NCBI GenBank assembly: GCA_048938105.1
Contig: JBHLMN010000012.1
Coordinates: 132,876-196,875, forward strand
DNA length: 64,000 nucleotides
Source of the DNA: Promethearchaeota archaeon
GTDB taxonomy: Archaea > Asgardarchaeota > Heimdallarchaeia > Hodarchaeales > Hodarchaeaceae
Direction: 5' to 3'
A program made the translations under genes and the position numbers. The notes beneath the pieces were generated by a model. The model was given only the letters and a program-made list of their open reading frames with translations, was not told the DNA's origin and did not search any database. Every line of letters starts with the position of its first letter. The first letter of the stretch is position 1. Of the stretch, positions 5,802 to 28,742 are shown piece by piece.

Positions 5802-6482
5802 GTGAGAGATCTTTCAAAAATAACAATAGTCATTCAAATGATCCTTGCTGTTCCATTCATCATCATTTTTGCAGGAGTAATGCTCTTCATTCCAGCTGGA
5901 ACAATTGATTGGATCGAGGGGTGGATTTATATCCTTTTATTAATTGTTTACTACCTTACTATGACTATATATTTAATTATCAAGGATCCATCAACACTGA
6001 GAAAACGTAAAAAACTGTCTACTAGTAAGATTGAAAATTTTTTCCTTGTTATTCTGGGTTTGTTGTTCTTTCCATTGATAATTATGCCAGGCTTTGATTA
6101 TAAATTCCAATGGACACAATTACCAAGTTTAGTTAGGATAATTGGGTTTTTTGGGCTTGTATTCTCATATATCATTAACTTCTGGGTCATGAAAGTAAAT
6201 TCTTACGCTTCAAAAGCTCTAATAATACATGAAAATCATATAGCAATAACGATTGGACCCTATGGAATCGTACGACATCCAATGTATGTGAGTTTTATAC
6301 TTCTAGCTTTTAGTACGCCAATTGCACTCGGTTCATTAGTATCCATACTCTTGGCGATACCAATACCCTTTTTACTTGTCTTTCGGATCCGTAAAGAAGA
6401 AGAAATGTTAAAGAAGAACCTTTCAAGCTATATTGAATATACCGAAAAAGTTCGTTATCGTTTAATTCCCAAAATATGGTGA
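5802..6482 (+). CDS. ICMT/PEMT-family membrane methyltransferase-like protein
   Basis: GPYGIVRHPMYVSFILLAF followed by RKEEEMLKKNL..YIEYTEKV. Multi-TM. GTG start in the track. Confidence 0.65.
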   Translation: MRDLSKITIVIQMILAVPFIIIFAGVMLFIPAGTIDWIEGWIYILLLIVYYLTMTIYLIIKDPSTLRKRKKLSTSKIENFFLVILGLLFFPLIIMPGFDYKFQWTQLPSLVRIIGFFGLVFSYIINFWVMKVNSYASKALIIHENHIAITIGPYGIVRHPMYVSFILLAFSTPIALGSLVSILLAIPIPFLLVFRIRKEEEMLKKNLSSYIEYTEKVRYRLIPKIW

Positions 6483-11272: not shown

Positions 11273-11914
11273 TCATATCAAAGAGAATTGAATCACTACA
11301 AAGAGCATGATACTAAATGTAATTACTGAAATCACTGTGTCGAATTTTCCTGTCTTTAGAAATGGGATAAATAATGGAGTTTTGCTTTTATAACTAGTAT
11401 AATCAGCGCCAAATTTCTTCAATAGGTACTGATCTTCTATAAGTGCAAGAATAATATAAGCCAGTAGTTGTAAATACCATAGTATTATTGTTTCTTCCGC
11501 TGACAGCCAACTCATACCAAAAAAGAAAGTAATATAAAAATAACTCCACCCTGTCAAGCCAATTGTCAAAAGTAGAAGACCAGTATACTGGGGATGTCTT
11601 ATAAATCGATAAGGGCCAGAGGTGACTAATCCCCTTCTCTTTTTTACGCCGAGATAAACAATTGAATAAATTATCAATACAACGCTTATCATAATCAAAA
11701 TTTTCCCAAAGAATACCTCATTAAAATTGAGAAGGCTGGCATAGCCTTCAATGATACTGCTAGAAAGATTGGGAACCAAGGCACCCAATAACAGAATTAC
11801 AGGAGCAGCCATGAGTGGTATCCATACCCAGATTCCTGGAAGTTGCTGAACTAAAAGAAATAAATATCCAGCCGTGCCAAAAACAATAGCTTGAGCTCTC
11901 TCTAGTTTTTTCAT
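11273..11914 (-). CDS. ICMT/PEMT-family membrane methyltransferase-like protein
   Basis: GPYRFIRHPQYTGLLLLTIG followed by EDQYLLKKFGADYTSYKSKTP. Multi-TM. Confidence 0.65.
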   Translation of the reverse strand: MKKLERAQAIVFGTAGYLFLLVQQLPGIWVWIPLMAAPVILLLGALVPNLSSSIIEGYASLLNFNEVFFGKILIMISVVLIIYSIVYLGVKKRRGLVTSGPYRFIRHPQYTGLLLLTIGLTGWSYFYITFFFGMSWLSAEETIILWYLQLLAYIILALIEDQYLLKKFGADYTSYKSKTPLFIPFLKTGKFDTVISVITFSIMLFVVIQFSLI

Positions 11915-12886: not shown

Positions 12887-13828
12887 TTAGCTTAATATTT
12901 CAATTAATTTGACCAAATCCTCTTTATTGATGGCAACAACATCTGCTTCAGGAAATATATTGCGGTTGTTTTCTGAAATTCCCTGTCCTCCGATTGCAAT
13001 ACGAATTTGGTTTTTGAAAACATTATGTAAATACTCTAAATTTCGTTTAAGAGTACCAAGATATAACGGAAGGGTAATGGAGATAAATATCCAATCAGGT
13101 AATTCAGGAAGATCTTTGATATATTTGATTAAGGATTGGATGGGTAAAGCTCGCCCCAGATTAATAATCTTGTAATTTAAATCCCGAAGAATATATTCTA
13201 AGGCAAATAAACTGAGAACATGTCTTTCACCTTCTACAGGTACTAAAATGATAATTCCTTTTTCCTCTATATTTTCATTTACTGGTATTCTTGCAACGAT
13301 TAGCTCTTCAACGCGATTAGAAATAATGTGTTCTTCCGCAGTTGAAAGATTCGCTTGAGCCCATTGTACACCGACCTCATGCATTAGTGGTGTGATAAAA
13401 TCAACAATAAAGGGTGTACTATTAGGAAACATTGATTCTATGTTTACTGAGAACTCCTCAACATCATAATTTGATGATTTCAGATATCTGATCATTTCTT
13501 GTATGGAGGCTAATTTTAAAACAGAGGGTTTTTCTATTCTTCCTTTCTCCTCAGGCTTCTTCTTTTCTTTTAATATCTCATTCTCATGTATATATAGTTC
13601 TTTGATTAGATCATCAGTTAAATATACAACAGTATACCGCCCCCGTTTAAGTGGGCGTCGTTCGATTTCGATATAACCTTGTAAATTTAGTTCTTTTATG
13701 GCATTAGAAATTGTTGAACGTTTAAGATCTAAATTGGATGCAAGTTCAGAAACAGGGACTTCCCTTCCGCGATTTTGCCTTAAGTATCGAAAAATACGAT
13801 CTCTGGCTGGTAATTGGACATTTTCCAT
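12887..13828 (-). CDS. CarH/LitR-like cobalamin-binding (putative light-sensing) regulator with an N-terminal winged-helix domain
   Basis: N-terminal wHTH (VPVSELASNLDLKRSTISNAIKELNLQGYIE). W156-x9-E166-H167 lies in VQWAQANLSTAEEHII. The B12-binding Rossmann part has GIIILVPVEGERH203VLS, ISITL and IAIGGQG. The gene sits immediately downstream of crtB. Confidence 0.7.
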   Translation of the reverse strand: MENVQLPARDRIFRYLRQNRGREVPVSELASNLDLKRSTISNAIKELNLQGYIEIERRPLKRGRYTVVYLTDDLIKELYIHENEILKEKKKPEEKGRIEKPSVLKLASIQEMIRYLKSSNYDVEEFSVNIESMFPNSTPFIVDFITPLMHEVGVQWAQANLSTAEEHIISNRVEELIVARIPVNENIEEKGIIILVPVEGERHVLSLFALEYILRDLNYKIINLGRALPIQSLIKYIKDLPELPDWIFISITLPLYLGTLKRNLEYLHNVFKNQIRIAIGGQGISENNRNIFPEADVVAINKEDLVKLIEILS

Positions 13829-13897
13829 AAGGCATTGTTACCTTCTTATTGATATTCTTATGATTTCTTCATGACTTACTCTTATTTTATGAACCAG

Positions 13898-14842
13898 CTA
13901 AAGTTTACGAAGGTACTCTAAACGTACTTTAGTTGCCAAAATAATCTTTCTTAGTTTAGAAACAACTGCCCGTTGATTTAATATTTGATAATCAATTCTT
14001 TTTATCTCATTTAGAATTTCCCCATAGACTCTTGAGGCCACTTTTACAGTATAAGCTCCTGCAGGTGGTAATTCCTCAATACCAAGATCAGCTATCTTAT
14101 AAAGAGCTTTCGCTCGCTCTGATTCGTAACGAATGAGTGATTTGAGGTTCTCATTCACTTTATCACCCCTTAGATCCTCAATCGTAACCTGATAATCATT
14201 CCGAGTTTCTTCTGGTAGATATATTCGCCCCTTGAGGAAATCCTCTTTGATATCTCTTAATATATTGGTTAATTGCATTGCTCTACCTAGATCTGCAGCT
14301 CGTGCTAGAGTTCGTTTTTCTGGATTTTTGATGAAGATGTGAGTCATCATTAAACCAACAGTACTTGCAACCCGATACATGTATAAGTCAAGTTCTTCTT
14401 CTGAATAGTACTCGGTTTTTATAAGATCCATTCTCACACCTTCTATAAGCTCATGCATGTAATTAACTGGAATTTGATGTTTACGTAACGTATCTCCAAA
14501 GGCATGAAGGATAGGATTTGTAGAGCTATATCCATTGGCCAATTTTGTTATAGTACTTTTCAATCGATCAAGTTCAAAATTAATCTTATCAATCGTAATC
14601 CCCTTAGGGGCTTCATCAACTATATCATCACTTAAACGACATATAGCATAGAGAGCAGCAACGCTTTTACGCTGATCTTCAGGTAAAAATCGACTAGCGA
14701 AATAGAATGACTTGCTATGCTCTATCATCCAGTCTAGACAGATTTGATAGCTTTCTTCAAGTGTTTCATCCATCAAACTATGTTTAGGTGTCGTACTTTT
14801 GGGAAGAAGTTCCCAATCAATTGTTTTGTGAGTTGAATACAT
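13898..14842 (-). CDS. crtB: Phytoene synthase
   Basis: Squalene/phytoene synthase motifs FYFASRFLP, YAICRLSDDIVDE (first Asp-rich) and NILRDIKEDFLKGRIYLP (second Asp-rich). Confidence 0.85.
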   Translation of the reverse strand: MYSTHKTIDWELLPKSTTPKHSLMDETLEESYQICLDWMIEHSKSFYFASRFLPEDQRKSVAALYAICRLSDDIVDEAPKGITIDKINFELDRLKSTITKLANGYSSTNPILHAFGDTLRKHQIPVNYMHELIEGVRMDLIKTEYYSEEELDLYMYRVASTVGLMMTHIFIKNPEKRTLARAADLGRAMQLTNILRDIKEDFLKGRIYLPEETRNDYQVTIEDLRGDKVNENLKSLIRYESERAKALYKIADLGIEELPPAGAYTVKVASRVYGEILNEIKRIDYQILNQRAVVSKLRKIILATKVRLEYLRKL

Positions 14843-14864
14843 TTTCTAATTCACTTATTAATAT

Positions 14865-14891
14865 TTCATGAATTAGTTCAACTTCATGAAT
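14865..14891. promoter_or_regulatory. Two copies of the 8-bp palindrome TTCATGAA in the divergent crtB / crtI promoter region (candidate operator)
   Basis: TTCATGAA at 14865-14872 and 14883-14890, 18 bp apart, both followed by T. They lie inside the 135-bp crtB-crtI intergenic region. Confidence 0.35.
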
Positions 14892-14977
14892 AAACATTTA
14901 AATATTTTTCGAATGTAGGTAATCAATCAAAAAAGTGTCATTTGTCAAGTAGACATTACTTTTTTGGATAAATAAAA

Positions 14978-16561
14978 GTGAGAAAAATGAGTAATGGACA
15001 TAATAAACGTAATATAGCCTTTGATAATAAAAACCCTGAAACGTTTCTCGAATCAGTGGTAATTATAGGCTCTGGGATTGGTGGACTGGCGGCGGGAATA
15101 CGCCTTCAGACAACAGGAAAATTTAATGTTACTATTATAGAAAAACTAGACCAAGTTGGTGGTCGGGCCAGAGTCTTTAAAGATCAAGGGTTTACTTTTG
15201 ATGGAGGTCCTACGGTAATAACTGTACCTGACATTTTTAAGGATTTATTTACTTTACCTGGTCGAAAAATGGAGGATTATGTCGAATTAATACCAGTGGA
15301 GCCGTTTTATCGAATCCATTTTAACGATGGGACATTTTTTGATTATTCTACTCCGGAAAAAAATATACCTCAAATTGAAAAAGTAAATCCTGAAGATGTA
15401 GAAGGATATAAACGCATGCTTAAAGCAGTTCGACCGATCTACGAGAAGGGGTTCAAAGAATTATCATTTAAACCTTTTAACAAGTTTACTTCAATGCTTA
15501 AAGTAGCTCCCTCCCTCATCAAGTTACAATCATACCGTTCAAATTATAAATTTGTCTCTAAATATATAAAAAATGAGAATCTCCGAATGGTATTTAGTTT
15601 TCACCCTTTACTTATTGGGGGGAATCCTTTCTCGGTTCCATCAATTTATAGTCTTATTCAATACCTGGAAAAAGAATTTGGAGTTTGGTTTGTGCGTGGT
15701 GGTACAAATGCTTTAGTTCAGGCGTTAGCAAACTTATTTGAGGAGCTTGGGGGTAAAATCATTTTGAATAGTGAGGTTAAAAAAATTGAAGTTAAAGATA
15801 ATCAAGTAGAGGGCGTTTTAACTGTTTCGAATGATTTTTATCCAAGTAAAATCGTAATAAGTAATGCTGACCCCGCTTTTACATACACAAAAATGATTGA
15901 TGCAGAGTGGCGCAGGAAAAACAGTGATAAGCGTTATAAAAAAGCGAAATATTCTATGGGATTAGTTGTAATTTATTTTGGAACGAAAAGACAATATCCA
16001 AATATGAAACATCACACTATTATTTTGGGTCCCCGGTATAAAGGACTAATAGAAGATATTTTCAAGAAAAAGATTTTAGCAGAAGATTTTTCGAGCTATT
16101 TACATCTCCCCACTCGGACTGATCCAAGTTTAGCTCCTGAAGGACATGAAGCCTTTTATATCCTGATTCCCGTCCCTCATCAAGATTCTGGTATTAATTG
16201 GGAAGAAATGGCTGAACCATTTAAACAACGAATCTTTGATTTTCTGAATGAAAATTATCTCCCTGAACTAAAAGAGAACTTAGTGACAGAGCGAATTTTT
16301 ACTCCTCTAGATTTTGAACGAGACTATAATAGCTTTAAAGGATCTGGTTTTTCTGTTGAACCAATTTTTACTCAATCAGCGTGGTTCCGTCCACATAACA
16401 AATCTGAAGATATTGATGGTCTTTATTTAGTGGGTGCTGGAACCCATCCAGGAGCAGGATTGCCTGGAGTTGTCTCCAGTGCAAAAGTAACCACAGATTT
16501 GATCATCAATGGGAAAAATGGATTTTCAAAAAAACCCTCTGGAATAAGTAATGCTAATTAG
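14978..16561 (+). CDS. crtI: Phytoene desaturase
   Basis: N-terminal FAD fold VVIIGSGIGGLAAGIRLQ, C-terminal LYLVGAGTHPGAGLPGV, and the length and order typical of CrtI. The track start is a GTG; the ATG at 14987 is likely. Confidence 0.85.
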   Translation: MRKMSNGHNKRNIAFDNKNPETFLESVVIIGSGIGGLAAGIRLQTTGKFNVTIIEKLDQVGGRARVFKDQGFTFDGGPTVITVPDIFKDLFTLPGRKMEDYVELIPVEPFYRIHFNDGTFFDYSTPEKNIPQIEKVNPEDVEGYKRMLKAVRPIYEKGFKELSFKPFNKFTSMLKVAPSLIKLQSYRSNYKFVSKYIKNENLRMVFSFHPLLIGGNPFSVPSIYSLIQYLEKEFGVWFVRGGTNALVQALANLFEELGGKIILNSEVKKIEVKDNQVEGVLTVSNDFYPSKIVISNADPAFTYTKMIDAEWRRKNSDKRYKKAKYSMGLVVIYFGTKRQYPNMKHHTIILGPRYKGLIEDIFKKKILAEDFSSYLHLPTRTDPSLAPEGHEAFYILIPVPHQDSGINWEEMAEPFKQRIFDFLNENYLPELKENLVTERIFTPLDFERDYNSFKGSGFSVEPIFTQSAWFRPHNKSEDIDGLYLVGAGTHPGAGLPGVVSSAKVTTDLIINGKNGFSKKPSGISNAN

Positions 16562-17385
16562 TGGAAGAAATTGTAATGTTAACATATTTCATCTTCCTCC
16601 TTTTCTTTATTGTTATACCTTTGATGGTAATCAGTTTTTTTTATTATAAGAAATATCGTGGAGGGGAAGAATATCAAAAAACGATGATAAAAAAAATCTT
16701 AATTGTGTTAGCGATATTAATAATTGTAGCTATTACTTATACTACTCCATGGGATAATTTTCTCGTCGAAAATGGCATTTGGTATTATGAGACATCGAAA
16801 GTTATGGGTATTTTAATTGGTTTTGTACCCATTGAAGAATATGGCTTTTTCGTATTGCAGACTCTCTTTATTGGATTGCTATTCGGATGGATTCTGCTTC
16901 ATAGAAAGAAAATCAGTCATAATCAGAATAATTTTAGAGTTAATTTACGCCTGATTTCAGCGATTGGGCTACTTATTGTTTGGATTGTAGGATTTCTTGC
17001 ATTTATTAACAGAATAGAAACTTTAACTTATCTGAATTTAATCCTTTTATGGGGAATACCTCCAATAATGATTCAACTGATCTATGGCGCTGATATTCTC
17101 TGGTTGTACAATCGAGACCTTATCTCAGTCATCTCTCTCTCAACTATTTACTTAGCTATTGCAGATACTATTGCGATTGCAGATGGAATCTGGACAATTA
17201 GTATAAATACATCAACAGGGATTCTTTTGGCTGGAGTTTTACCTATTGAAGAGTTTGTCTTTTTCTTGGTCACTAATATATTAATTACTTTTGGATTAAC
17301 CTTAATGATTGATTCTAGGAGTATTGATAGATTTCATCAATACTTTTCTAGATTAAAAGAACACAAGTGGAGAAATAAGTTATGA
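16561..17385 (+). CDS. crtY: Lycopene cyclase, fused CrtYc/CrtYd (heterodimer-type) domains
   Basis: Polytopic protein with two repeats of the lycopene-cyclase-domain pattern (TPWDNFLVENGIWYY ... PIEEYGFF; second half PIEEFVFF). Likely ATG at 16576. Follows crtI directly. Confidence 0.75.
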   Translation: MEEIVMLTYFIFLLFFIVIPLMVISFFYYKKYRGGEEYQKTMIKKILIVLAILIIVAITYTTPWDNFLVENGIWYYETSKVMGILIGFVPIEEYGFFVLQTLFIGLLFGWILLHRKKISHNQNNFRVNLRLISAIGLLIVWIVGFLAFINRIETLTYLNLILLWGIPPIMIQLIYGADILWLYNRDLISVISLSTIYLAIADTIAIADGIWTISINTSTGILLAGVLPIEEFVFFLVTNILITFGLTLMIDSRSIDRFHQYFSRLKEHKWRNKL

Positions 17386-17502
17386 CCAGTAGAATTTTTG
17401 TACAGGAATTGTATACATGCTTCAAAAATTTAGAAAACTGCAATATGAAGATATATTGGGAATACCTCCCTTTCTTTAACTCACACAATTTGAGGTAATT
17501 TC

Positions 17503-17955
17503 ATGTTAAATAACGTAATAGAATATCTTAATGAGTCTGTAATACCTTTGCGGCTTTCTGGTACCACTAAATCAGGCTGGCCATTTGTAATGAGCCTTTG
17601 GTATGTTTATTTAAATGAAAAAATTTACTTAGCAACTATAAAATCAGCTAAAGTCGTTGATTATCTTTCTAATAACCCCAAATGTGCTTTTGAAATTGCC
17701 AGTGATACTCCACCTTATTGTGGGATTCGAGGACAAGCAATGGCAAAAATTATTGAATCTAAGGGGGATGAAATTCTAAAAATCCTTCTAAATCGTTATC
17801 TAGGAGGAGAAAATAGTCCTTTAGCCCGAAGACTGTTGAATCAACGTATACCAGAGGTTGCGATTGAGCTTACTCCTGTTAAAGTGTATCAATGGGATTA
17901 TAGTAAGCGAATGATTGACTCGATTGAATTTTCTTCAGTTAAAAAGTGTCCATAA
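17503..17955 (+). CDS. PPOX/FMN-binding split-barrel family protein
   Basis: About 150 aa. GWPFVMSLWYVYLNEKIYLAT and IRGQAMAKI resemble PPOX-like proteins. Confidence 0.45.
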   Translation: MLNNVIEYLNESVIPLRLSGTTKSGWPFVMSLWYVYLNEKIYLATIKSAKVVDYLSNNPKCAFEIASDTPPYCGIRGQAMAKIIESKGDEILKILLNRYLGGENSPLARRLLNQRIPEVAIELTPVKVYQWDYSKRMIDSIEFSSVKKCP

Positions 17956-17992
17956 ATAAGAACGATAAAAAAACCAGTAAAAAGGTGATATT

Positions 17993-18412
17993 ATGTCAGA
18001 TATCAAATATTCTGCTGGAGTATGCAATATCGGTGACGCTGAAATAAAACAAAGACGTCGATTAGGATATATAGGCATTGGTCTTACTGTGATAGCAATT
18101 ATTGTATATTTAGGATTGATTTATTCTATAAAATTAGATCCATTCTTTGGAGTGATTATTTTCATACCTGCTGAAATGTCAGCTATTGGGTTAATTCAAG
18201 CTAGGAACAAATTTTGCGCTGCTTATGGATTGATTCACCAACAGAACGTTTCCTCAAGCTTAGGCTTAACTGTGAAAATAGGCAATAAAAATTCCCAGAG
18301 AAAGGATAGGAACAAAGCTCTTAAAATTATTTTTCAATCCCTAGTAATTGCGATTATCATTACTGTTTTTACAGTTATTGGAGGGATTTTGATAGCTCAA
18401 AGTATTATTTAG
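17993..18412 (+). CDS. Small membrane protein (3 TM), unknown function
   Basis: Hydrophobic helices. The N-terminal CNIGDAEIKQRRRLG resembles YgaP-like/DUF2892 small membrane proteins (weak recollection). Confidence 0.35.
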   Translation: MSDIKYSAGVCNIGDAEIKQRRRLGYIGIGLTVIAIIVYLGLIYSIKLDPFFGVIIFIPAEMSAIGLIQARNKFCAAYGLIHQQNVSSSLGLTVKIGNKNSQRKDRNKALKIIFQSLVIAIIITVFTVIGGILIAQSII

Positions 18413-18501
18413 GTTTGAATATAGGTTGAAAAAAAGCATAAGAGATAAATATGAATCAAATCAATATACTCAATCTTAGGGAGAGGATTTTTCCTACTCC
18501 A

Positions 18502-19239
18502 TTAAAAAATTCGTCCTAGTGACGCGTCTAAGATTTTTCCAGTCATTAGAGGAGTAGTTGCAGCAAATTCTATCATTTCATTCAAATCCTTAGGTAATAA
18601 TGGGTAATTAAGAAGCTGTTTTGATATTAATTTCGATGATAGAACCTCAATTGTTGTACCATTATCCATAGATTTCTTTTCCAATTCTCTATTATGTCGA
18701 TCCGTAAAAACATATGTAGGAGAAACTCCGTTAATTCGAATTTTGGGAGCCAAAACTCTAGCCATTGTACGAATTAAATAGACTAATCCAGCTTTCGCAA
18801 CTCCATAAGGCATTTTATCCAATGAAGGTTCATAAGCAGCAGAACTAACGATATGTACTATAGCTCCGCCTTCTATCATAAGTTCAGCTGCCATTCTTGT
18901 TAATAAGAAAGCAGATGTTAGATTCACATTTATTACACGATTGAAAAATGAAGCATCCACTTCTAATGGATTTTTTGAAGCCAAGGATCCCCCTATATTA
19001 TTTATCAGAATGTCTATTGATCCAATTTTAGTCTGTACCCATTTCTTTACCTTTCTAATTCCTTCCTCGGTTGTGCAATCAGCTGCAATATTATTAATTC
19101 CTGGAAAACGATCATTTATCATATTTAGACTGGATATGAGAACCTCATTATTCTGATTAGAAAGTTTTCTCATAATTGCCTCTCCAATCCCTCCAACAGC
19201 AACACCAGTAACTAGAATTTTCTTATTTTCGATGATCAT
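18502..19239 (-). CDS. Classical short-chain dehydrogenase/reductase (SDR)
   Basis: TGxxxGxG (ILVTGVAVGGIGEAI), NNxG-like LINNIGG, catalytic S...YGVAK (YxxxK). Confidence 0.8.
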   Translation of the reverse strand: MIIENKKILVTGVAVGGIGEAIMRKLSNQNNEVLISSLNMINDRFPGINNIAADCTTEEGIRKVKKWVQTKIGSIDILINNIGGSLASKNPLEVDASFFNRVINVNLTSAFLLTRMAAELMIEGGAIVHIVSSAAYEPSLDKMPYGVAKAGLVYLIRTMARVLAPKIRINGVSPTYVFTDRHNRELEKKSMDNGTTIEVLSSKLISKQLLNYPLLPKDLNEMIEFAATTPLMTGKILDASLGRIF

Positions 19240-19284
19240 GATTAATTTCCTCAGTTATGTTGTTAATGGTTTAATTTATTACAT

Positions 19285-19773
19285 CTAGTCATCTATTTTC
19301 AGAGTTTGAGTTTTAAGTAATTTATAATTTTTAGGAAATCCCCAATCTTCAATCTTATTGTAACTTGTTTTTTTTGATCGAAAATGTACCCATATTGTTG
19401 TACTATCAAGAAGTGGATTAGCATGGTAATGCTTTTGATCACCATATCGAAAAGCTTCTAGTACTAGGGGTAATTCCTGACGAAAAATTCTATCACGAAA
19501 CTTTAAAGGGCCAATTCCCCCACTTACTTGACAATAGACATGGAGTGAATATACATTTTCGGTTTTCAACCATTCAGCTAACACTTCATCCCGCATTATC
19601 CGTGTTTGCCATCCTTTTAGTTGTTTTTTGTTAAACTCATGGGCAATGGTGAGAAATAAATCTCCTGTCCGATCTGAATGGGTTAATGTATAGCAACGAG
19701 GTACTAGAGGAGAATCAATGGTTGTTGGGGGTATAAATGTAACATTTAGTTTATTTGGGTTTAAGCGATTCAA
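19285..19773 (-). CDS. Staygreen (SGR) family protein, Mg-dechelatase homolog
   Basis: PRCYTLTHSDRTGDLFLTI, QLKGWQTRIMRDEVLAEW, SLHVYCQVSGG, ELPLVLEAFRYGD and IWVHFRS...KIEDWG are collinear with the plant SGR core as I remember it (PRRYTLTHSD..., LQGW...RDEVVAEW, LHVHCHISGG, ELPVVLKAF.HGD, VWVYFHS...ECWG). Confidence 0.75.
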   Translation of the reverse strand: MNRLNPNKLNVTFIPPTTIDSPLVPRCYTLTHSDRTGDLFLTIAHEFNKKQLKGWQTRIMRDEVLAEWLKTENVYSLHVYCQVSGGIGPLKFRDRIFRQELPLVLEAFRYGDQKHYHANPLLDSTTIWVHFRSKKTSYNKIEDWGFPKNYKLLKTQTLKIDD

Positions 19774-19799
19774 GGTAGAAATCCTTCTATTTGAAAGAA

Positions 19800-21302
19800 C
19801 TAAGTTGTAGATAAATAATAGGGCTTAGGAGTAGAGCTTATTTTAGTATATGTAAGACTATCTCCAGGAATATCCCTACAAATTTCCTCTAACAGCTTTT
19901 TTGACAGCATGTCGAAAAATGGTTGGATCATAAACCAATAGGCTATCCCAATAAGCCCTTTTGGGACTATTCGAAAAATCTGATGAAGTTCAATTTTTTT
20001 GTGATTAATACGCCTTAAACGATATCTTAGGATGGTATAACCAGGTAAGATGAAATCTGTATGTAATGTTAATTCTTTCTTTGGAATTTTATTCTGAATT
20101 GAAAGAGGAGTCTTTTTCATCTCTCCCTTGTCCTTAAAACCTTTGAAAAAACCGTTTAGAAAAGCACCAAATTTCCATAAGTATAAATTGATCTGAAAAT
20201 TTCTATATTTCTCAATCTGAAGTAATTTGTTCCACAAATTCTCAGGATTACTAGTTAAAATAGCCTTACGATGATCTTGGAAGACAAATCCTCCAGACCA
20301 GGATGGATCCCCTGGAATGTGCCATTCAACGGGTAAATCATAATAGCTAGAATAACTTCCGTACCTAAGATACTGTTGGGGGTTTAATGCTAATCGAATT
20401 GCTTGTTTATGGTTTAGTAACTTCTGTGGAATCAATTCTCGTATCCTAAAATCATGACAAACAACCTCATTCTTCATTCCATCTATTAATGGACGAGCTA
20501 AAGATGATTGAATGCCTGTAATCAATCTTATCCAATAGGAGCTTAGGCTAGGAGTGAAGAAAGGGATAGGGAGAATTAAACGCTTTGGTAGTGCCATAAT
20601 TTCCACATAACTCTCCATAAACTGTTTATAAGTGATAATATCTGAACCACCAATATCAAAGGTCTCACCGATTGTTTCTGGTACATCTAAACAGTCAGTT
20701 AGATATTTCAGAACATTTCGAATAGCTATTGGTTGATTTCTTGTTCTAAGCCACTTGGGTGTAATCATAATTGGCAATCTATTGACTAGATACCTCATCA
20801 TCTCAAAAGCTGCGCTTCCACTCCCAATAATAATTGCTGCACGTAACGTTGTAACTGGTACTGAACATGAATTCAGTATTCTGGAAACTTCGATTCGAGA
20901 CTGTAGATGCTTACTTAATTTTTCTTTTTCGTCCCCTAATCCCCCAAGATAAATAATTCTTTCAATTGCTGCCTTTTCAGCTGCAATTATTGTGTTTTGG
21001 GCTGCAATTCTATCAGATCTAATAAAATCTTTTATTTTTCCTTCCATAGAATGGATTAAATAGTAAACCGAGGAGACTTCTTCCATTGCGTCTTCTAAGG
21101 TTTTAATATCGAAAACATTAAGATTTACCGTTTTCAAATTCCTATGATGACTCCATAATCTCATATTTAGCTTGTCTTTTGACCTAAACCCCACTCGTAC
21201 AATATATCCTTTCTTTAAGAGTTTTGGTACAAGTCTGGAACCTATGTAACCTGTGGCCCCAAGTACAAGAACTTCTTTTTGTTTCAAGGGAAATCTACTC
21301 AT
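19800..21302 (-). CDS. NAD(P)-binding Rossmann protein (atypical/extended SDR, NmrA/epimerase-like) with a long C-terminal extension (DUF2867-like?)
   Basis: N-terminal VLVLGATGYIGSRLVPKLLKKGY (GxxGxxG). The roughly 200-aa C-terminal part has no motif I can name; the DUF2867-like assignment is from memory of similar architectures. Confidence 0.55.
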   Translation of the reverse strand: MSRFPLKQKEVLVLGATGYIGSRLVPKLLKKGYIVRVGFRSKDKLNMRLWSHHRNLKTVNLNVFDIKTLEDAMEEVSSVYYLIHSMEGKIKDFIRSDRIAAQNTIIAAEKAAIERIIYLGGLGDEKEKLSKHLQSRIEVSRILNSCSVPVTTLRAAIIIGSGSAAFEMMRYLVNRLPIMITPKWLRTRNQPIAIRNVLKYLTDCLDVPETIGETFDIGGSDIITYKQFMESYVEIMALPKRLILPIPFFTPSLSSYWIRLITGIQSSLARPLIDGMKNEVVCHDFRIRELIPQKLLNHKQAIRLALNPQQYLRYGSYSSYYDLPVEWHIPGDPSWSGGFVFQDHRKAILTSNPENLWNKLLQIEKYRNFQINLYLWKFGAFLNGFFKGFKDKGEMKKTPLSIQNKIPKKELTLHTDFILPGYTILRYRLRRINHKKIELHQIFRIVPKGLIGIAYWFMIQPFFDMLSKKLLEEICRDIPGDSLTYTKISSTPKPYYLSTT

Positions 21303-21314
21303 TCTAAGAGGACA

Positions 21315-22085
21315 TCAATAATCTTGACGAGCTTTCCAGAAATCACCATAAAAGAAAAATCCAATCAGTTGAGAAAATACGAATATTATTGATATAACTA
21401 TTCCTAAATACTGTAATATAAGAATTTGATTACTATGGAAGATATACAGAGGGATAAAGTTCAATAAGAACCAAATCCACGAAAGAATTGGAGCAGATAT
21501 GAACATAAGAGATCTTTTCCATTTTGAAACAGATAAGAAGGAACTCAAATCATATTTTATTCCAAAAATAGGAAGTTTCGTTATAGGTGTCCAAGCTAGC
21601 AAGTTTGATTTACGAAATGTGGATTTGAAAATAAAATAATTTCTAAAGTTTAATCCTAAAAGAAAACCAAATATGCAATGGATTACGGTATGAGAGAGCA
21701 TAAAGTTTACAAAACTGATTAGAAAGAACAAAATAACACTAAACCAAAAATCTACAGAAAAATAAAAGGCTAAAAAATAAAGAATTTCTGAGATGAGAAC
21801 ACCAACTGAGAATAGTAAAGTTCCGACTTTAATTGAAAATTTTGGAACGTTCCAACTATCGAAGAAGAATTCATCAATTCTCCCTAAAATATCTATTTCT
21901 TCCTCTGTTATTTTTACTTTTCGTGCATATTTTACAGCAGTTTGATATTTTCTCCAATGACTCTTCCGATTTAATGTTCCTGTTTCATATGAATCCTCTA
22001 AATCCTTGATATTCCTACTAAAATTAGTGTTATCCATTTGAGAACCTTCCCTAGAACTGTAGTTCTTATTAGTTATACTTAACAT
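21315..22085 (-). CDS. Membrane protein (about 5 TM) with an intramembrane HxxxH motif, unknown function
   Basis: Soluble charged N-terminus of about 75 aa, then TM helices. LSHTVIHCIFGFLLG sits in a helix. The gene lies 59 nt downstream of heliorhodopsin. Confidence 0.5.
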   Translation of the reverse strand: MLSITNKNYSSREGSQMDNTNFSRNIKDLEDSYETGTLNRKSHWRKYQTAVKYARKVKITEEEIDILGRIDEFFFDSWNVPKFSIKVGTLLFSVGVLISEILYFLAFYFSVDFWFSVILFFLISFVNFMLSHTVIHCIFGFLLGLNFRNYFIFKSTFRKSNLLAWTPITKLPIFGIKYDLSSFLSVSKWKRSLMFISAPILSWIWFLLNFIPLYIFHSNQILILQYLGIVISIIFVFSQLIGFFFYGDFWKARQDY

Positions 22086-22144
22086 TATAATTCTAGTGAT
22101 CGAGGTTTGAAAATAAAAAGAGGGGAAGGATCATAATGACCCAA

Positions 22145-22957
22145 TTAAGCAAATATTAACCCCATAAATACAATCCAAGCTAATGCTGATTTTGCAAAGA
22201 GGCTTAATAATTGATAACCTCGTTCTCCATATAGATAATCTTTCCATGGGCCTATTTTCTTATACTGAAGAAACATATTCAAGGCAAAGCTGTTAAAGAA
22301 GACGAAATAAACTACTAAGGCAATATAGACAAAAGTAGGAACTTCTCGTCCAACTGTGTTAATACTCAAGAATGTATCAAGGATGACGATCCAGGGCATT
22401 ATTCCAGCTATCCATCCTAGGATATAAGGAGCCCAGCTTGTTTTTTCAGTATATTGGTTATAAGTCTCCATTAACAACCCAAACATGTTCATTAATCCAT
22501 TAAGCACGAATATCAGAGCAAGAATCCAAAATTCTAGTATTCCAAAAGCTAAAGCAATGAATATGATCATCACTGAACTGGAAAAAGCATACTCATACCA
22601 ACGTACTGGATTCATTTCTTTCTTTAAATTGGTAACATATTTGTTATATAATGGAAAAGCAATCAGTAAATGAGCAATAGCTGACATTAGAAGAAAACTA
22701 GCAAGCAGGATACCTGCAATGTTTTCAAAAGTGAAAAAAACTTCGGGGATAGGCTCAAGAACTGGACGAGTACCAGTTAATTCTTTTATTCCTAAATACG
22801 ACCTATAAATGTCGATTTTGAAGTTTTTTATTTCATCAATTACTAAACTCAGAGCAAATATAACTGTTGCTTGCACTAAGTGCAAGATACCCATGGCTAT
22901 ATTGAATTTCCGGAGATAGGAAAATGATATTTTTGACTTTTCAATGTTAGTTGACAT
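22145..22957 (-). CDS. Heliorhodopsin
   Basis: Seven-TM protein collinear with heliorhodopsin 48C12 as I recall it. LRKFNIAMGILHLVQ matches LQNFNRIAGVFHLLQ. NPVRWYEYAFSSSVMIIFIA matches NIFRWVEYSLSSSVMIVLIA (counterion Glu = E122, codon 22592-22594). FFNSFALNMFLQYKKIGPWKDYLYGERGYQLLSLFAKSALAW matches FFNSFALVQYLQYKGKGKWSNYLRGERAYIVLSLVAKSALAW (Schiff-base Lys = K256, codon 22190-22192). Confidence 0.85.
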   Translation of the reverse strand: MSTNIEKSKISFSYLRKFNIAMGILHLVQATVIFALSLVIDEIKNFKIDIYRSYLGIKELTGTRPVLEPIPEVFFTFENIAGILLASFLLMSAIAHLLIAFPLYNKYVTNLKKEMNPVRWYEYAFSSSVMIIFIALAFGILEFWILALIFVLNGLMNMFGLLMETYNQYTEKTSWAPYILGWIAGIMPWIVILDTFLSINTVGREVPTFVYIALVVYFVFFNSFALNMFLQYKKIGPWKDYLYGERGYQLLSLFAKSALAWIVFMGLIFA

Positions 22958-23176
22958 TAAGCAACCTCCTATGGATTTAGACAGAAGAGTCCTTCTTTAT
23001 ATATTCATTATGATAATTAAAACGTAAATCACCAATAAATCTAGATCTAGAATTAATGACTTGAATCAGGATGAAGTTCTATTACTGAAAAAATAAAGAA
23101 TCTATTATAATGTGAACCTAAAACTTGCTGATTGATGAACTAGTACTTCTAAAATCACAAAGAATGGTGAAGGCTG

Positions 23177-23953
23177 ATGTCTCTTACAAAACAAAAACAA
23201 TTTTTGATTTATGGTAACATCTTGAGCTTTTTATTAACTATCGTGATGAATTCTTTAGCCAACATCCTTCCTTTGAATGGAAAAACAACTGCAGAACTCA
23301 GTGACTCTTTCCCTAACTTATTTGTCCCCGCTGGGTATGTTTTTAGTATCTGGGGATTGATCTACATTTTATTAGCAATTTTCACGGTTTCCCAAGCCCT
23401 TCCCAAGTATAGAGAGGAGGATGTTATTGAAAAAATCTCCTATTTCTTTATTATAAGCAATCTGGCTAATTCATCATGGATTGTATTTTGGCACTTTGAA
23501 ATAATAATCGCATCCTTATTGGTTATGTTGATACTCCTTGTATCTTTAATACTAATCTATACCCGATTAGAAATTGGAAAGAAGCCCGTGAGTGAAAAAA
23601 TTAAGATCACTTCTCATATCCCATTTAGTGTTTACCTGGGATGGATTACTGTTGCAACTGTTGCAAATGTTACAGCTTTACTTGTATCAATAAACTGGGA
23701 TGGTTTTGGCATAAGTGAAGTCATCTGGACTGCAGTTGTAATAAGTGTTGCAACAATAATTGCACTAGTTATCGTATTCACCCGGAAAGACTATGCCTAC
23801 GTTCTTGTCCCCGTCTGGGCTTTTATAGGAATAGCAGTAAAGCAATTAAATACTCAAAACGATGTTGTTATAATTTCTGTTATAGCAGCAGTTATTTTAG
23901 TCATAACATTGCTTGTTAGACTTTCATTGGATTTAGTTCAGAATCGAAAATGA
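23177..23953 (+). CDS. TspO/MBR-related (tryptophan-rich sensory protein-like) membrane protein
   Basis: LFVPAGYVFSIWGLIYILLAIF, NSSWIVFWHFE and PFSVYLGWITVATVANV resemble the roughly 260-aa TspO-like family found in bacteria. Confidence 0.5.
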   Translation: MSLTKQKQFLIYGNILSFLLTIVMNSLANILPLNGKTTAELSDSFPNLFVPAGYVFSIWGLIYILLAIFTVSQALPKYREEDVIEKISYFFIISNLANSSWIVFWHFEIIIASLLVMLILLVSLILIYTRLEIGKKPVSEKIKITSHIPFSVYLGWITVATVANVTALLVSINWDGFGISEVIWTAVVISVATIIALVIVFTRKDYAYVLVPVWAFIGIAVKQLNTQNDVVIISVIAAVILVITLLVRLSLDLVQNRK

Positions 23954-24834
23954 ATGATAATAATTTTAGATCACTAATTACTTCACTCATAATAATATGC
24001 ATTGCTGCATGTCTTGCACTCATTGGTAGCCACAGGGGTATAACTGTTTTTGGTGGAATACCAGTATTTGCACTTGGAGTAGCTATTGCCTTTATAATTC
24101 AATGGATTGCGTTTATACCTGCTTATATCAAAAGAACAGAGAAATTTTTCGATTTGACTGGCTCTTTGACTTACAGTATTGTGATTATTTTTTCAGTTGT
24201 TTTGAGTTCTGAAATCAATATACGATCTATTTTACTGATGTTTTTGGTCTTGATCTGGGCGATTCGCCTTGGTATGTTCTTGTTTAGGAGAATACTGAAA
24301 GAGGGTGAGGATAAACGCTTCAAGGAAATCAAAGAATCAGGTTCGCGTTTTCTATTAACTTGGACTCTTCAAGGTTTGTGGGTTAGCTTTACATTAGCAG
24401 CTGCATTGGCTGCGATCACAGTAAAACAGAGGGTAGAATTTGGCGTCTTTGGTTTAATTGGTCTTCTGGTTTGGATCATAGGCTTTGGATTTGAAGCTGT
24501 TGCAGACTATCAGAAGAGTAAATTCAGATCTATTCCTGAAAACAAAGGAAAATTTATTACTACTGGATTATGGTCGATATCACGACATCCCAATTACTTT
24601 GGAGAGATCCTCCTATGGATCGGTATTGCAATCATTGCACTTCCAACACTTCAAGGTTGGAGATGGCTAACACTAATTTCTCCTATTTTTGTCACATTAT
24701 TATTGACCAAGGTTAGTGGTATTCCATTACTTGAGAAACATGCAGATGAAAAGTGGGGTGGTCAGGAGGAATATGAGCAATACAAAAGTAAGACTCCAGT
24801 ATTAATCCCAAGGCCATTCTTCAAATCAAATTAA
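23950..24834 (+). CDS. DUF1295 / steroid 5-alpha-reductase-ICMT superfamily membrane protein
   Basis: GLWSISRHPNYFGEILLWIG and EEYEQYKSKTPVLIP. Overlaps the TspO-like gene by 4 nt (ATGA). Confidence 0.65.
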   Translation: MNDNNFRSLITSLIIICIAACLALIGSHRGITVFGGIPVFALGVAIAFIIQWIAFIPAYIKRTEKFFDLTGSLTYSIVIIFSVVLSSEINIRSILLMFLVLIWAIRLGMFLFRRILKEGEDKRFKEIKESGSRFLLTWTLQGLWVSFTLAAALAAITVKQRVEFGVFGLIGLLVWIIGFGFEAVADYQKSKFRSIPENKGKFITTGLWSISRHPNYFGEILLWIGIAIIALPTLQGWRWLTLISPIFVTLLLTKVSGIPLLEKHADEKWGGQEEYEQYKSKTPVLIPRPFFKSN

Positions 24835-26468: not shown

Positions 26469-27239
26469 ATGTATATCGAAAAAGATGAAAATAAAACTCT
26501 AGGGGAGGAAATTAGAAGTGAAAACTCCATCAATTTAGTAGTGACAACTTTTCTATTAGGTGTGAGCATTTATGTAGTGGCCCAGCTTATCGGAATATTT
26601 CTTACTACTGAATCATTTGGTCCAATTATCGAAGGAGGAAATGTGTCAAAACTGTTATTAACTCAGTCAATGTTTCTGTTTCTCTCTCTTGTCACTATAT
26701 TTTTTCTGACTAAAGGAAAATTAACTCACTATGGATTAAATAAACCTATCGGAGCAGTAAAATGGGGATATATTATTGGATTAGGATTATTGATTGGTTC
26801 AATTGCTACCATCCTCATTATTGTAACAGGAGCAAATGGAAATCCTGCTTTAACAGGTCTAGGTATTAGAGAAAAAATAGTCTTACTTTGGTTTTTAGCT
26901 AGTATAGCAGAAGAAGTTTTCGTTAGAGGTTTATTACAGGGGTATCTGAATCCTCTAGAGGGTATGAAAATTAGTATTGGTAAGCAAAATTTCTCATATC
27001 CAGTTGTTTTCAGTGCTATATTTTTTGGTACCATCCATCTACCGCTAGTATTTTTTGGGGCAGACCTTATCACAATTTGTATTATCTTTTCAATGACAAT
27101 AACTCTGGGTTTCTTTACAGCCTCTTTACGAGAGAAATATCAAAGTATATTACCTTCAATTGGCATTCATATTACAACAAATATTGGAGGAACAATGCTA
27201 GGTCCAATAATATATGCAATCTTGGTAGGATCAATTTAA
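26469..27239 (+). CDS. CPBP family (CAAX-protease/Abi-like) intramembrane metalloprotease
   Basis: EEVFVRGLLQ (EExxxR), FGTIH and a late conserved His (IGIHITTN) in a polytopic protein. Confidence 0.65.
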   Translation: MYIEKDENKTLGEEIRSENSINLVVTTFLLGVSIYVVAQLIGIFLTTESFGPIIEGGNVSKLLLTQSMFLFLSLVTIFFLTKGKLTHYGLNKPIGAVKWGYIIGLGLLIGSIATILIIVTGANGNPALTGLGIREKIVLLWFLASIAEEVFVRGLLQGYLNPLEGMKISIGKQNFSYPVVFSAIFFGTIHLPLVFFGADLITICIIFSMTITLGFFTASLREKYQSILPSIGIHITTNIGGTMLGPIIYAILVGSI

Positions 27240-27557: not shown

Positions 27558-28742
27558 ATGGAAAATCAAAATAAAGGAAGTAGTTGGTTTATTTTCTCTA
27601 CACCAGCTATTCTTGCTGCGGGTTATCTTTCATTGCAATTTTTAATCGAATTCCTTGTAGCATTGCTGCTTTTTATCGTTCAATTAACCGATGATATTGT
27701 GATAAGTAAGTTTATTGTCTTAATTATTAGTCAGATGCTTCTTACCGTGATAATTATCTTTGTGATAACCCCTTTCCTGAAAATTAAAGATGTTGAGTTT
27801 ACTACTGTTAGCTATACTAGTTTTCTAAAATTTATTGCAGTTTTTTGTCTATTCTGGGCGATTACGATACCTATTACCCTAATTTTTTCAGTTTTTTCCA
27901 CTAATTTCAGTATAGGGGAAGCAATCTATGAAAAAACATTACCACTGTCGATCGGTCATCGTGGAAATCTATTCTCAGTCATCATGTGGTTACTAGCTGG
28001 TACTCTAAGCTTTGCCATATTTATGGAATATTTATTTCGAAGAACATTGATACCATTATTCGAAAAGCGTGGTTTATCTCCTTTTGCTGCAGTTATCACT
28101 TCAAGTATTGCTTTTGCTTTAGTTAGCATACCAAATTATCTCGGAATCCAACTAACAATTCTTACAGAATCCAACTTATTAATTCTATATTTTAGTAGAT
28201 ATGGATTATTAAATTCACTTTTCTGTTCCTTAAACCTTTTTATGACAACATTTATCCTTGGAATGGCTTGTGGAATTGTATATATCCTAACAAGAAATGT
28301 CATATTTTCAATTATGGTACATTGTCTTGGTATACTTCCCTACTACTTGATAGATTTATTTCATGATAATATTATGTTCGATTTATTGTTAGGTATTTTA
28401 ATTATTGTGATTAACATTTCAGGCCTTCTTGTTGCCTTATTCACGAGTCATACTATTTTTAAAGCTTCATCCCAGACTGACTGGATTACTATCCTTAAGA
28501 AAAAGTCGGAAGTAAACATCAATCGCGGAATAACTGGATTCTTTATTACTTTTTGGGGAATAATTATTAATATTGTGATATTCATTGGTTTACTTGCCGA
28601 ACATGCTCCTATTATAGTTGCTCTATTGTTTAATATTATATTTCTTGGATTTTGCACTAAATATTTACGAGAAGATTCAATAGAGGATAAATCACCCACT
28701 GATCATAATGAAATGAAAGAATATGGTGAAATAAGTGAATAG
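27558..28742 (+). CDS. CPBP family-like intramembrane protease (divergent)
   Basis: MEYLFRRTLIP (E-x-x-x-R with the first Glu pair degenerate) and SIMVHCLG in a 394-aa polytopic protein. Confidence 0.45.
   Translation: MENQNKGSSWFIFSTPAILAAGYLSLQFLIEFLVALLLFIVQLTDDIVISKFIVLIISQMLLTVIIIFVITPFLKIKDVEFTTVSYTSFLKFIAVFCLFWAITIPITLIFSVFSTNFSIGEAIYEKTLPLSIGHRGNLFSVIMWLLAGTLSFAIFMEYLFRRTLIPLFEKRGLSPFAAVITSSIAFALVSIPNYLGIQLTILTESNLLILYFSRYGLLNSLFCSLNLFMTTFILGMACGIVYILTRNVIFSIMVHCLGILPYYLIDLFHDNIMFDLLLGILIIVINISGLLVALFTSHTIFKASSQTDWITILKKKSEVNINRGITGFFITFWGIIINIVIFIGLLAEHAPIIVALLFNIIFLGFCTKYLREDSIEDKSPTDHNEMKEYGEISE

Follow-up and report, generated by a model that had tools for sequence, protein, structure and literature searches.

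A Staygreen-family gene of an Asgard archaeon and the recurrent linkage of such genes to heliorhodopsin and other light-related genes in bacteria and archaea

Introduction

What does a homolog of a chlorophyll-degrading enzyme do in an archaeon that presumably contains no chlorophyll? This question is raised by a stretch of 64,000 nucleotides (hereafter the window) of contig JBHLMN010000012.1 from a Promethearchaeota archaeon (assembly GCA_048938105.1). A preliminary description, made from the letters alone, had recognised there an intact homolog of Staygreen (SGR), the plant Mg-dechelatase, lying between two reductase genes and downstream of a photoreceptor. We analysed the protein, its locus and the neighbourhoods of related SGR genes. 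The protein is predicted to be an Mg-dechelatase, and SGR genes of both domains recurrently lie close to heliorhodopsin (HeR) and other light-related genes.

An archaeal SGR gene is by itself not new. Close relatives of the window gene are named 'staygreen family protein' at NCBI, archaeal SGR homologs have been published (three archaeal sequences were aligned in earlier work), and an SGR-bearing Asgard genome (Sigynarchaeales) appears in a 2026 preprint about chlorophyll degradation in prokaryotes, which contains no neighbourhood analysis. The preliminary description had itself noted that SGR homologs are known outside phototrophs. The new part is the cross-domain linkage of Staygreen to heliorhodopsin, CarH and photolyase, which was not found described in the searchable literature. 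Combining heliorhodopsin or rhodopsin with Staygreen, stay-green or dechelatase yielded no meaningful pairing in the literature searched, including the part of the supplement of Chazan et al. that was covered.

Results

The archaeal protein has the predicted fold and the active-site residues of an Mg-dechelatase

The gene and its active-site codons are located as follows.

19285–19773, minus strand: Staygreen-family protein, predicted Mg-dechelatase, 162 aa, TTG start (Pfam PF12638, PDB 7y5y)
19672–19680, minus strand: codons of His32-Ser33-Asp34 in the THSD block, read from the sequence (catalytic Asp34, assisting His32)
19588–19590, minus strand: codon of Asp62, the second essential Asp (residue check; invariant in an 18-sequence alignment)

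A search with the Staygreen profile, the check that the preliminary description had proposed, gave a significant and near-full-length match: residues 4–150 of the open reading frame (ORF) align with positions 2–147 of the 147 positions of PF12638 (E=5.5e-49; 166 bits against a cutoff of 27). NCBIfam holds no Staygreen family model. The family's sole solved structure, PDB 7y5y, is that of an SGR homolog from an Anaerolineae bacterium (AbSGR-h; Anaerolineae bacterium SM23_63), and it matched the ORF with E=1e-45. Since this alignment begins at residue 1, the TTG start is supported.

On the minus strand, CAT at 19680–19678 encodes His32, TCA encodes Ser33 and GAT at 19674–19672 encodes Asp34, within PRCYTLTHSDRTG. 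The codon positions first reported for H32 and D34 were confirmed in this way, and the active-site Asp block is intact, with D62 present as well. H32, D34 and D62 are invariant in the alignment of 18 homologs from Asgard archaea and Chloroflexota. In AbSGR-h, the D34N and D62N variants were soluble and inactive and H32A was weakly active, while folding depended on R26, Y28, T29 and D114 and hexamer formation on T31, R61, E63 and R95 (PMC8531759). All residues tested in that mutagenesis are present in the ORF, most of them invariant across the 18 homologs: it shares the catalytic residues (H32, D34, D62), the structural residues (R26, Y28, T29, and D112 in place of D114) and the oligomer-interface residues (T31, R61, E63, and R93 in place of R95), and it also carries T36.

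An AlphaFold2 model of the ORF was built from the 18-sequence alignment (pLDDT 82.6, pTM 0.79). When this predicted structure was compared to the PDB with Foldseek, 7y5y_A was matched with E=2.7e-20, template modelling (TM) scores of 0.87/0.92 and a root-mean-square deviation of 1.7 Å over 152 columns. The runner-up matches were unrelated ADF/cofilin folds with a TM score of ~0.36. From the profile match, the conserved residues and the model, the window protein is almost certainly a true member of the Staygreen family and catalytically competent.

The predicted fold is thus shared with AbSGR-h (PMC8531759, PMC11006732), which belongs to the same Pfam family, is 49–53% identical over the full length and, like the window protein, has neither transit peptide nor Cys-rich tail. 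The two differ in that the window protein lacks 2 residues of the loop that follows the GG motif, is extended by 11 residues at its C-terminus and comes from an archaeal (Asgard) host. Dechelating activity has been demonstrated for AbSGR-h and some other homologs, whereas the window protein is known from its sequence and a model.

The plant proteins SGR1, SGR2 and SGRL share with the window protein the Staygreen domain (146 of 147 Pfam positions), the THSD and RDE catalytic blocks and the same predicted chemistry. Plant SGR1 and SGR2 have an N-terminal chloroplast transit peptide and a C-terminal cysteine-rich motif. The window protein has no transit peptide, its domain starts at residue 4, and the tail (...LLKTQTLKIDD) contains no Cys. 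Because both plant features are missing, we regard the protein as a prokaryotic 'SGR homolog' and not as a plant-type SGR. The remaining PAO/phyllobilin pathway of plants is absent from the window.

Two other possibilities for the gene were considered and rejected. The dN/dS values between the ORF and seven Asgard orthologs are 0.11–0.21, which indicates that the gene is maintained under purifying selection; together with the retention of all key residues, this ruled out a pseudogene or decaying copy. The GC content of the gene is 0.35, compared to 0.336 for the window, and its GC and GC3 (GC at third codon positions) agree with those of the neighbouring genes, by which a recent horizontal acquisition was ruled out.

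Heliorhodopsin is the commonest neighbour of the SGR genes compared

When one genome of each GTDB species was scanned, SGR homologs were found in at least 515 species, from lineages including Asgard archaea, Bathyarchaeia, Hadarchaeota, Nitrososphaeria, Chloroflexota, Actinomycetes and Alicyclobacillus. We compared 82 loci, consisting of the best-matching 80 of these at least 515 species, a closed Heimdallarchaeota genome and the window, with up to 10 kb on either side of SGR. Open reading frames were called mechanically, their products were clustered by all-against-all BLASTP, the clusters were ranked by locus count, and the top neighbour clusters were named by the Pfam or NCBIfam match of one representative each. 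Clusters 1, 13, 17, 18 and 19 were ignored as antisense ORFs over real genes in high-GC genomes. For two clusters, unk163 and unk352, neither Pfam nor NCBIfam gave a match.

HeR was the commonest true neighbour and was found within 10 kb of SGR in 21 of the 82 loci (ten from Chloroflexota, seven from Asgard archaea including the window, two from Actinomycetes, and one each from Hadarchaeota and Thermoproteota). The median gap between the two genes was 234 bp, and they were on the same strand in 18 of the 21 loci. Ten loci, from Chloroflexota, a Hodarchaeote and a Hadarchaeote, had HeR on the same strand less than 100 bp from SGR. When only the 38 loci with 5 kb or more of sequence on each side of SGR were counted, 11 contained HeR, corresponding to a binomial probability of 1.6e-12 against an assumed baseline of 1.3%, with kinship among the loci ignored.

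In a neighbour-joining tree of bacterial and archaeal SGRs, drawn without support values, eight or more separate SGR clades showed HeR-SGR linkage, and the Asgard SGRs fell in at least three clades. Within the window's own SGR clade, HeR was nearby in five of nine loci, and two of the four loci without it are short contigs. In the same tree, the SGRs of two loci from Odinarchaeota / Promethearchaeota metagenome-assembled genomes (MAGs; L083 and L084) grouped with Chloroflexota and not with the other Asgard clades; in both, SGR is divergently paired with heliorhodopsin. This suggests that the HeR-SGR pair of these two loci may have been transferred between domains.

Several other families recurred. 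MFS transporters of the Tet/DHA1-like efflux type were found near SGR in 17 loci (median distance 40 bp, same strand in 17/17), and NmrA/DUF2867 reductases in 15 loci (median gap 171 bp, same strand in 14/16). DUF1295 proteins were present in 16 loci, AhpC-type peroxiredoxins in ~15, photolyase in 14, CrtI in 12, MerR+B12 regulators of the CarH/LitR type in 11, DegV in ten, UvdE in six, and phytoene synthase and PNPOx in five each. TspO-like genes were found in ten loci and lie directly upstream of SGR in three of them (L046, L066 and L081). Alpha/beta-hydrolases of two kinds occurred in 14 loci, usually adjoining SGR and co-directional with it; they gave generic matches only in Pfam, NCBIfam and the PDB, the best named one being BchO-like with 113.7 bits against a cutoff of 172.55. 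Five Chloroflexota loci (L036, L051, L052, L053 and L058) have in common a co-directional array in the order CarH/LitR regulator, YfcH-like protein, a protein without family, CrtI, photolyase, in some cases AhpC, SGR, NmrA/DUF2867 reductase and MFS transporter.

Tocopherol-cyclase-like genes (PF14249) were present in six loci (L004, L011, L041, L054, L068 and L082). In the closed Heimdallarchaeota genome (CP070695.1; L004, 9000–9950) the gene is directly upstream of SGR, and in the five Chloroflexota loci it is less than 6 kb from SGR. Plant tocopherol synthesis draws on phytol from chlorophyll breakdown.

These families overlap almost entirely with those of published heliorhodopsin neighbourhoods, both in the window and in the related SGR loci. 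In Chazan et al. (bioRxiv 10.1101/2021.02.16.431466) and Bulzu et al. (PMC8612252), the families near HeR include DNA photolyase, UvdE, carotenoid genes, PNPOx, AhpC/TSA, tocopherol cyclase, MFS/ABC, DUF1295, DegV and DUF2867, and they were interpreted as oxidative-stress, photoprotection or lipid-remodelling genes. The association of DUF1295 with HeR was reported in the former study, in whose dataset DUF2867 is strongly HeR-associated (bioRxiv 10.1101/2021.02.16.431466). Staygreen, in contrast, is named neither in the main texts of the two studies nor in the covered part of the Chazan supplement.

A characterised Mg-dechelatase is encoded in a comparable locus

One of the loci, L071 from an Anaerolineae MAG, encodes a protein that is 100% identical over 153 residues to AbSGR-h (7y5y). 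For the CHARACTERISED enzyme (AbSGR-h), this locus shows a comparable light-gene context, with genes on the same strand in the order photolyase, SDR (short-chain dehydrogenase/reductase), NmrA/DUF2867, DUF1475, DegV, TspO-like, DUF4345, DUF3159 and SGR. Because L071 encodes AbSGR-h, which was highly active on chlorophylls (PMC8531759), demonstrated Mg-dechelatase chemistry is tied to a light-gene neighbourhood. Bacterial SGR homologs have a broad specificity, while the plant enzymes are substrate-specific.

The window and L071 share an SDR, an NmrA/DUF2867 reductase and a TspO-like gene, but a photolyase heads the AbSGR-h cluster and heliorhodopsin that of the window. Since L071 has both reductases, the pairing of SDR and NmrA/DUF2867 is not unique to the window. 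The gene context of the window SGR, which had been put forward as testable, matters more than the window alone could show: the linkage to heliorhodopsin and light genes recurs across phyla and both domains, including the locus of AbSGR-h itself.

The window SGR is the fourth gene of a run headed by heliorhodopsin

In the window, SGR is the fourth of five genes on the same strand, the other four being the following.

22145–22957, minus strand: heliorhodopsin, first gene of the run (Pfam PF18761, E=2.4e-85; NCBIfam HeR equivalog, E=1.6e-90)
21315–22085, minus strand: multi-pass membrane protein, 256 aa, family-less, between HeR and the NmrA/DUF2867 reductase
19800–21302, minus strand: NmrA-like NAD(P)-binding reductase with C-terminal DUF2867, 26 bp upstream of SGR
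18502–19239, minus strand: classical SDR, last gene of the run (adh_short, E=1.8e-31; TGxxxGxG and YGVAK motifs), 45 bp after SGR

From heliorhodopsin to the SDR, the intergenic gaps are 59, 12, 26 and 45 bp. With all genes on the same strand, these gaps give the run an operon-like layout, and it is probably co-transcribed; we propose that its expression may be induced by light. The photoreceptor noticed upstream of SGR is the heliorhodopsin, which lies two genes away. It matched PDB 6is6 with E=3e-61 and has kept the Schiff-base (retinal-binding) Lys, in LSLFAKSALAW. A GGAGGT sequence is located 7 nt ahead of its ATG. The 256-aa membrane protein had no Pfam or NCBIfam match, and among the SGR loci compared a homolog was found only in the closest relative (L005), with 75% identity.

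That SGR lies between two reductase genes was also correct, with the NmrA/DUF2867 gene upstream and the SDR downstream. As a context for SGR function the two differ: the NmrA/DUF2867 family is recurrent (15 loci), whereas the SDR is lineage-specific, its family being confined to three loci, all in the window clade. The NmrA/DUF2867 protein matched NAD_binding_10 (E=3.9e-14), NmrA (E=2.1e-11) and, weakly, DUF2867 (E=5e-4); in its L071 homolog, DUF2867 was matched with E=3.6e-32. The SDR had only generic NCBIfam matches, all below cutoff.

The run is part of a light island of ~12 kb (12887–24834) with two candidate light sensors, the heliorhodopsin and a putative B12-binding regulator. The other genes of the island are listed here.

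12887–13828, minus strand: winged-HTH (helix-turn-helix) and B12-binding protein, 313 aa, CarH-like candidate light-responsive regulator, adjoining phytoene synthase and divergent from crtI
13898–14842, minus strand: phytoene/squalene synthase (PF00494, E=1.7e-73)
14978–16561, plus strand: phytoene desaturase CrtI (TIGR02734, E=1.7e-181)
16561–17385, plus strand: lycopene cyclase, CarR-domain type (TIGR03462, E=2.1e-32)
17503–17955, plus strand: PNPOx-like small flavin/F420-type protein, a weak match (PF01243, E=5e-4, below cutoff)
17993–18412, plus strand: family-less membrane protein, 139 aa, no Pfam match
23177–23953, plus strand: TspO/MBR-like membrane protein of a tetrapyrrole-binding family, divergent from HeR (PF03073, E=2.3e-6, 27.9 bits against a cutoff of 24)
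23950–24834, plus strand: DUF1295, steroid-reductase-like membrane protein (PF06966, E=2.1e-70)

With SGR and TspO, two tetrapyrrole-related families co-localise. The 139-aa membrane protein belongs to a cluster found in five Asgard SGR/HeR loci (the window, L004, L005, L006 and L008). In tblastn searches, photolyase, UvdE, the recurrent type of MFS, AhpC, DegV and the hydrolases were not found in the 64-kb window. In the closest relative, L005, photolyase and UvdE follow directly after the SDR.

No carotenoid-cleaving enzyme of the Blh/BCD type was detected among the window ORFs scanned. Genomes with HeR often lack blh, which leaves the source of retinal as a published puzzle. The carotenoid set of the window, lying beside HeR without a detected Blh/BCD-type enzyme, fits this puzzle.

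The putative regulator is CarH-like in its sensor module only, since its N-terminus matched HTH_11, MarR_2 and ArsR-type winged HTH domains and a MerR-type domain is absent. The B12-binding Pfam match (E=1.1e-5, 25.7 bits against a cutoff of 32.1) and the NCBIfam CarH match (E=2.3e-6) are both below cutoff; a bacterial CarH/LitR protein matched the region by tblastn with E=1.8e-7. The translation contains WAQANLSTAEEH, with a W-x9-EH motif, and VEGERHVL, with an ExH (GERH) motif. We take W-x9-EH to be the cap motif and ExH the His lower-ligand motif of CarH. The protein resembles the AdoB12 (adenosyl-B12) photoreceptor-repressors CarH/LitR and may be an archaeal counterpart of them with a different DNA-binding domain. 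The likeness extends to the light-induced carotenoid/photolyase regulons that these repressors control in non-phototrophic bacteria: in Chloroflexota, SGR is in a co-directional array in which a MerR+B12 regulator comes first and CrtI and photolyase come after it, and in the window the regulator with the two motifs is beside phytoene synthase and CrtI. What differs is the DNA-binding domain, which in the window protein is a winged HTH of the MarR/ArsR-like kind and not MerR, and the scores, which do not reach the curated cutoffs.

The host is an Asgard archaeon

The archaeal origin assumed in the preliminary description agrees with the closest homologs of SGR, which are 72–86% identical and come from Asgard MAGs labelled Hermod-, Hod-, Heimdall- or Promethearchaeota. 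In addition, the 5.5 kb between DUF1295 and SGR, both included, are syntenic with a Hermodarchaeota MAG at 83% nucleotide identity, and the window contains two small GTPases.

46388–46969, plus strand: Ras/Roc-family small GTPase (Pfam Ras, E=7e-41)
52814–53437, minus strand: Ras/Roc-family small GTPase (Pfam Ras, E=3e-43)

Ras-family small GTPases are a hallmark of Asgard archaeal genomes. The best homologs, the 5.5-kb synteny and the two GTPases support an Asgard host of the Hod/Hermod/Heimdall group. The window sequence is present in DNA runs of sediment and mangrove metagenomes. Scans of the 64-kb window for tRNA genes and Rfam families gave no match.

The same window contains an unusual concentration of eukaryote-flavoured membrane enzymes, namely three ICMT/PEMT-like methyltransferases, one leucine carboxyl methyltransferase-like protein and two members of the Rce1-like CAAX prenyl-protease family (3445–4125, 5802–6482, 11273–11914, 4166–4993, 26469–27239 and 27558–28742). 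The C-terminus of the GTPase at 46388–46969 (...LLTLYS) has no CAAX box. An Fpg/Nei-type formamidopyrimidine-DNA glycosylase, an enzyme of oxidative base-damage repair, is encoded at 38061–38903 on the minus strand, ~15 kb from the light island. Unrelated to SGR is the gene at 60679–63978 on the minus strand; its 1099-aa product, probably a surface or secreted protein, combines repeated right-handed beta-helix/NosD domains with a BNR-like repeat.

Discussion

Free chlorophylls are potent photosensitisers that produce singlet oxygen, and they are abundant in lit sediments and mats. Heterotrophs living in such chlorophyll-rich places may acquire lipophilic chlorophyll(ide)s. SGR, as a small soluble enzyme, would bind the Mg-tetrapyrrole on a hydrophobic surface patch, like AbSGR-h, and Asp34 (with His32 assisting) and Asp62 would extract the central Mg2+, giving a metal-free pheo-pigment. 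In plants, dephytylation and further disposal become possible through demetalation, the committed step. SGR would perform this committed step as one arm of a defence against photo-oxidative stress, while carotenoids, peroxiredoxin and photolyase would handle the damage. In many relatives, an adjoining alpha/beta-hydrolase might dephytylate the product and the efflux-type MFS might export it; the frequent position of these two genes next to SGR suggests a route of dechelation, de-esterification and export. We consider a light-linked role of the window SGR probable. For the fuller proposal, that the protein is an active Mg-dechelatase within a light-stress programme and detoxifies environmental chlorophyll, we see an even chance, and chlorophyll-type pigments are named only tentatively as its physiological substrate.

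A number of points weigh against this detoxification proposal. Pheophytin and pheophorbide remain photosensitisers, and demetalation alone is no detoxification. The window has neither an adjoining hydrolase nor the recurrent type of MFS, so that the three-step route is incomplete there, and the hydrolases next to SGR elsewhere are generic and not recognisable as pheophytinase or chlorophyllase. Light genes are absent from 19 of the 38 long loci. The 1.3% baseline is our own assumption, which we regard as generous, and not a measured control, and the loci surveyed are those closest to the query, so that the linkage may fail in distant SGR clades, for example in Bacillota. RNA runs containing the SGR gene sequence were searched for and none was found. 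Finally, Obata et al. are reported to have found chlorophyll dechelation by bacterial homologs variable in strength and broad, and to have deemed it promiscuous.

This last observation leads to a different explanation, in which chlorophyll dechelation is a side activity and the native substrate is another hydrophobic ligand of a heliorhodopsin-associated module (NmrA/DUF2867, DUF1295, DegV, DUF1475, tocopherol-cyclase-like), such as an oxidised lipid, a quinone, an isoprenoid, or a metallo-tetrapyrrole, e.g. adventitious Zn/Mg-porphyrins. It would account for the very broad specificity and for recurrent neighbours that belong to the families which Chazan et al. tied to HeR, lipid remodelling and oxidative stress, among them the strongly HeR-associated DUF2867; moreover, the two reductases flanking SGR in the window have no role in known chlorophyll catabolism. 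However, none of the residues needed for Mg removal varies among the 18 diverse homologs, AbSGR-h is highly active on chlorophylls and is encoded in a locus of the same kind, a tetrapyrrole-binding TspO family co-localises, and no other substrate has been proposed or demonstrated so far. We therefore think a side activity possible but rather unlikely. The close same-strand spacing of HeR and SGR in ten loci could also mean that the two form a functional pair in which light-activated HeR binds or regulates the dechelatase, an idea that overlaps with the detoxification proposal. There is a precedent in Trichococcus, where HeR aids a soluble enzyme, photolyase (PMC9769723). Yet 61 of the 82 SGR loci have no HeR within 10 kb, many being linked to CarH/LitR and photolyase instead, and in the window two genes intervene, which makes such a pair improbable.

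L004, L005 and the window differ greatly in the order of the genes that surround SGR, and half of the long loci have no light gene, as would be expected if SGR merely travelled in a variable accessory island that gathers light genes, with no functional tie to light. Such hitch-hiking is very unlikely in view of the linkage in both domains and in at least eight SGR clades, the tight same-strand spacing, the binomial value against the assumed baseline and the co-occurrence of several independent light-related families. Production or modification of the archaeon's own (bacterio)chlorophyll-like Mg-tetrapyrrole, with SGR turning over an endogenous pigment, finds nothing in its favour in the window. 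Meng et al. 2009 reportedly described a functional bacteriochlorophyll synthase homolog on a Bathyarchaeota fosmid, and Bathyarchaeia carry SGR homologs. On the other hand, ~60 scanned ORFs of the window gave no match to Mg-chelatase, chlorophyll synthase or other bch/chl families, although a 64-kb window cannot prove their genome-wide absence, and no chlorophototrophic archaeon is known, which weighs against this idea as well. We consider an endogenous pigment extremely unlikely.

Chlorophyll detoxification within a light-stress programme can be extended to a bolder form, in which SGR would be a core, so far unnoticed part of a cross-domain light-defence module, HeR would be the light sensor that directly gates or partners the dechelatase in some lineages, including this Asgard clade, and detoxification of environmental chlorophyll would be the ancestral function. 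This form is unlikely. If true, SGR would be one of the long-sought heliorhodopsin effectors, and plants would later have recruited the enzyme for leaf senescence.

The SGR locus joins two questions, namely the role of Mg-dechelatase homologs in organisms without chlorophyll and the role of heliorhodopsins. Its conserved placement beside light genes turns 'function unknown' into a concrete hypothesis for bacteria and archaea, and through the linkage the function of prokaryotic SGR homologs, and possibly that of some heliorhodopsins, can be put to a direct test. If light-linked detoxification of Mg-tetrapyrroles is true, it would offer an ecological reason why the chlorophyll-degrading enzyme of plants arose in prokaryotes and would add a pigment-detoxification arm to microbial photoprotection. 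It would also mean that these Asgard archaea inhabit places where light and phytodetritus matter.

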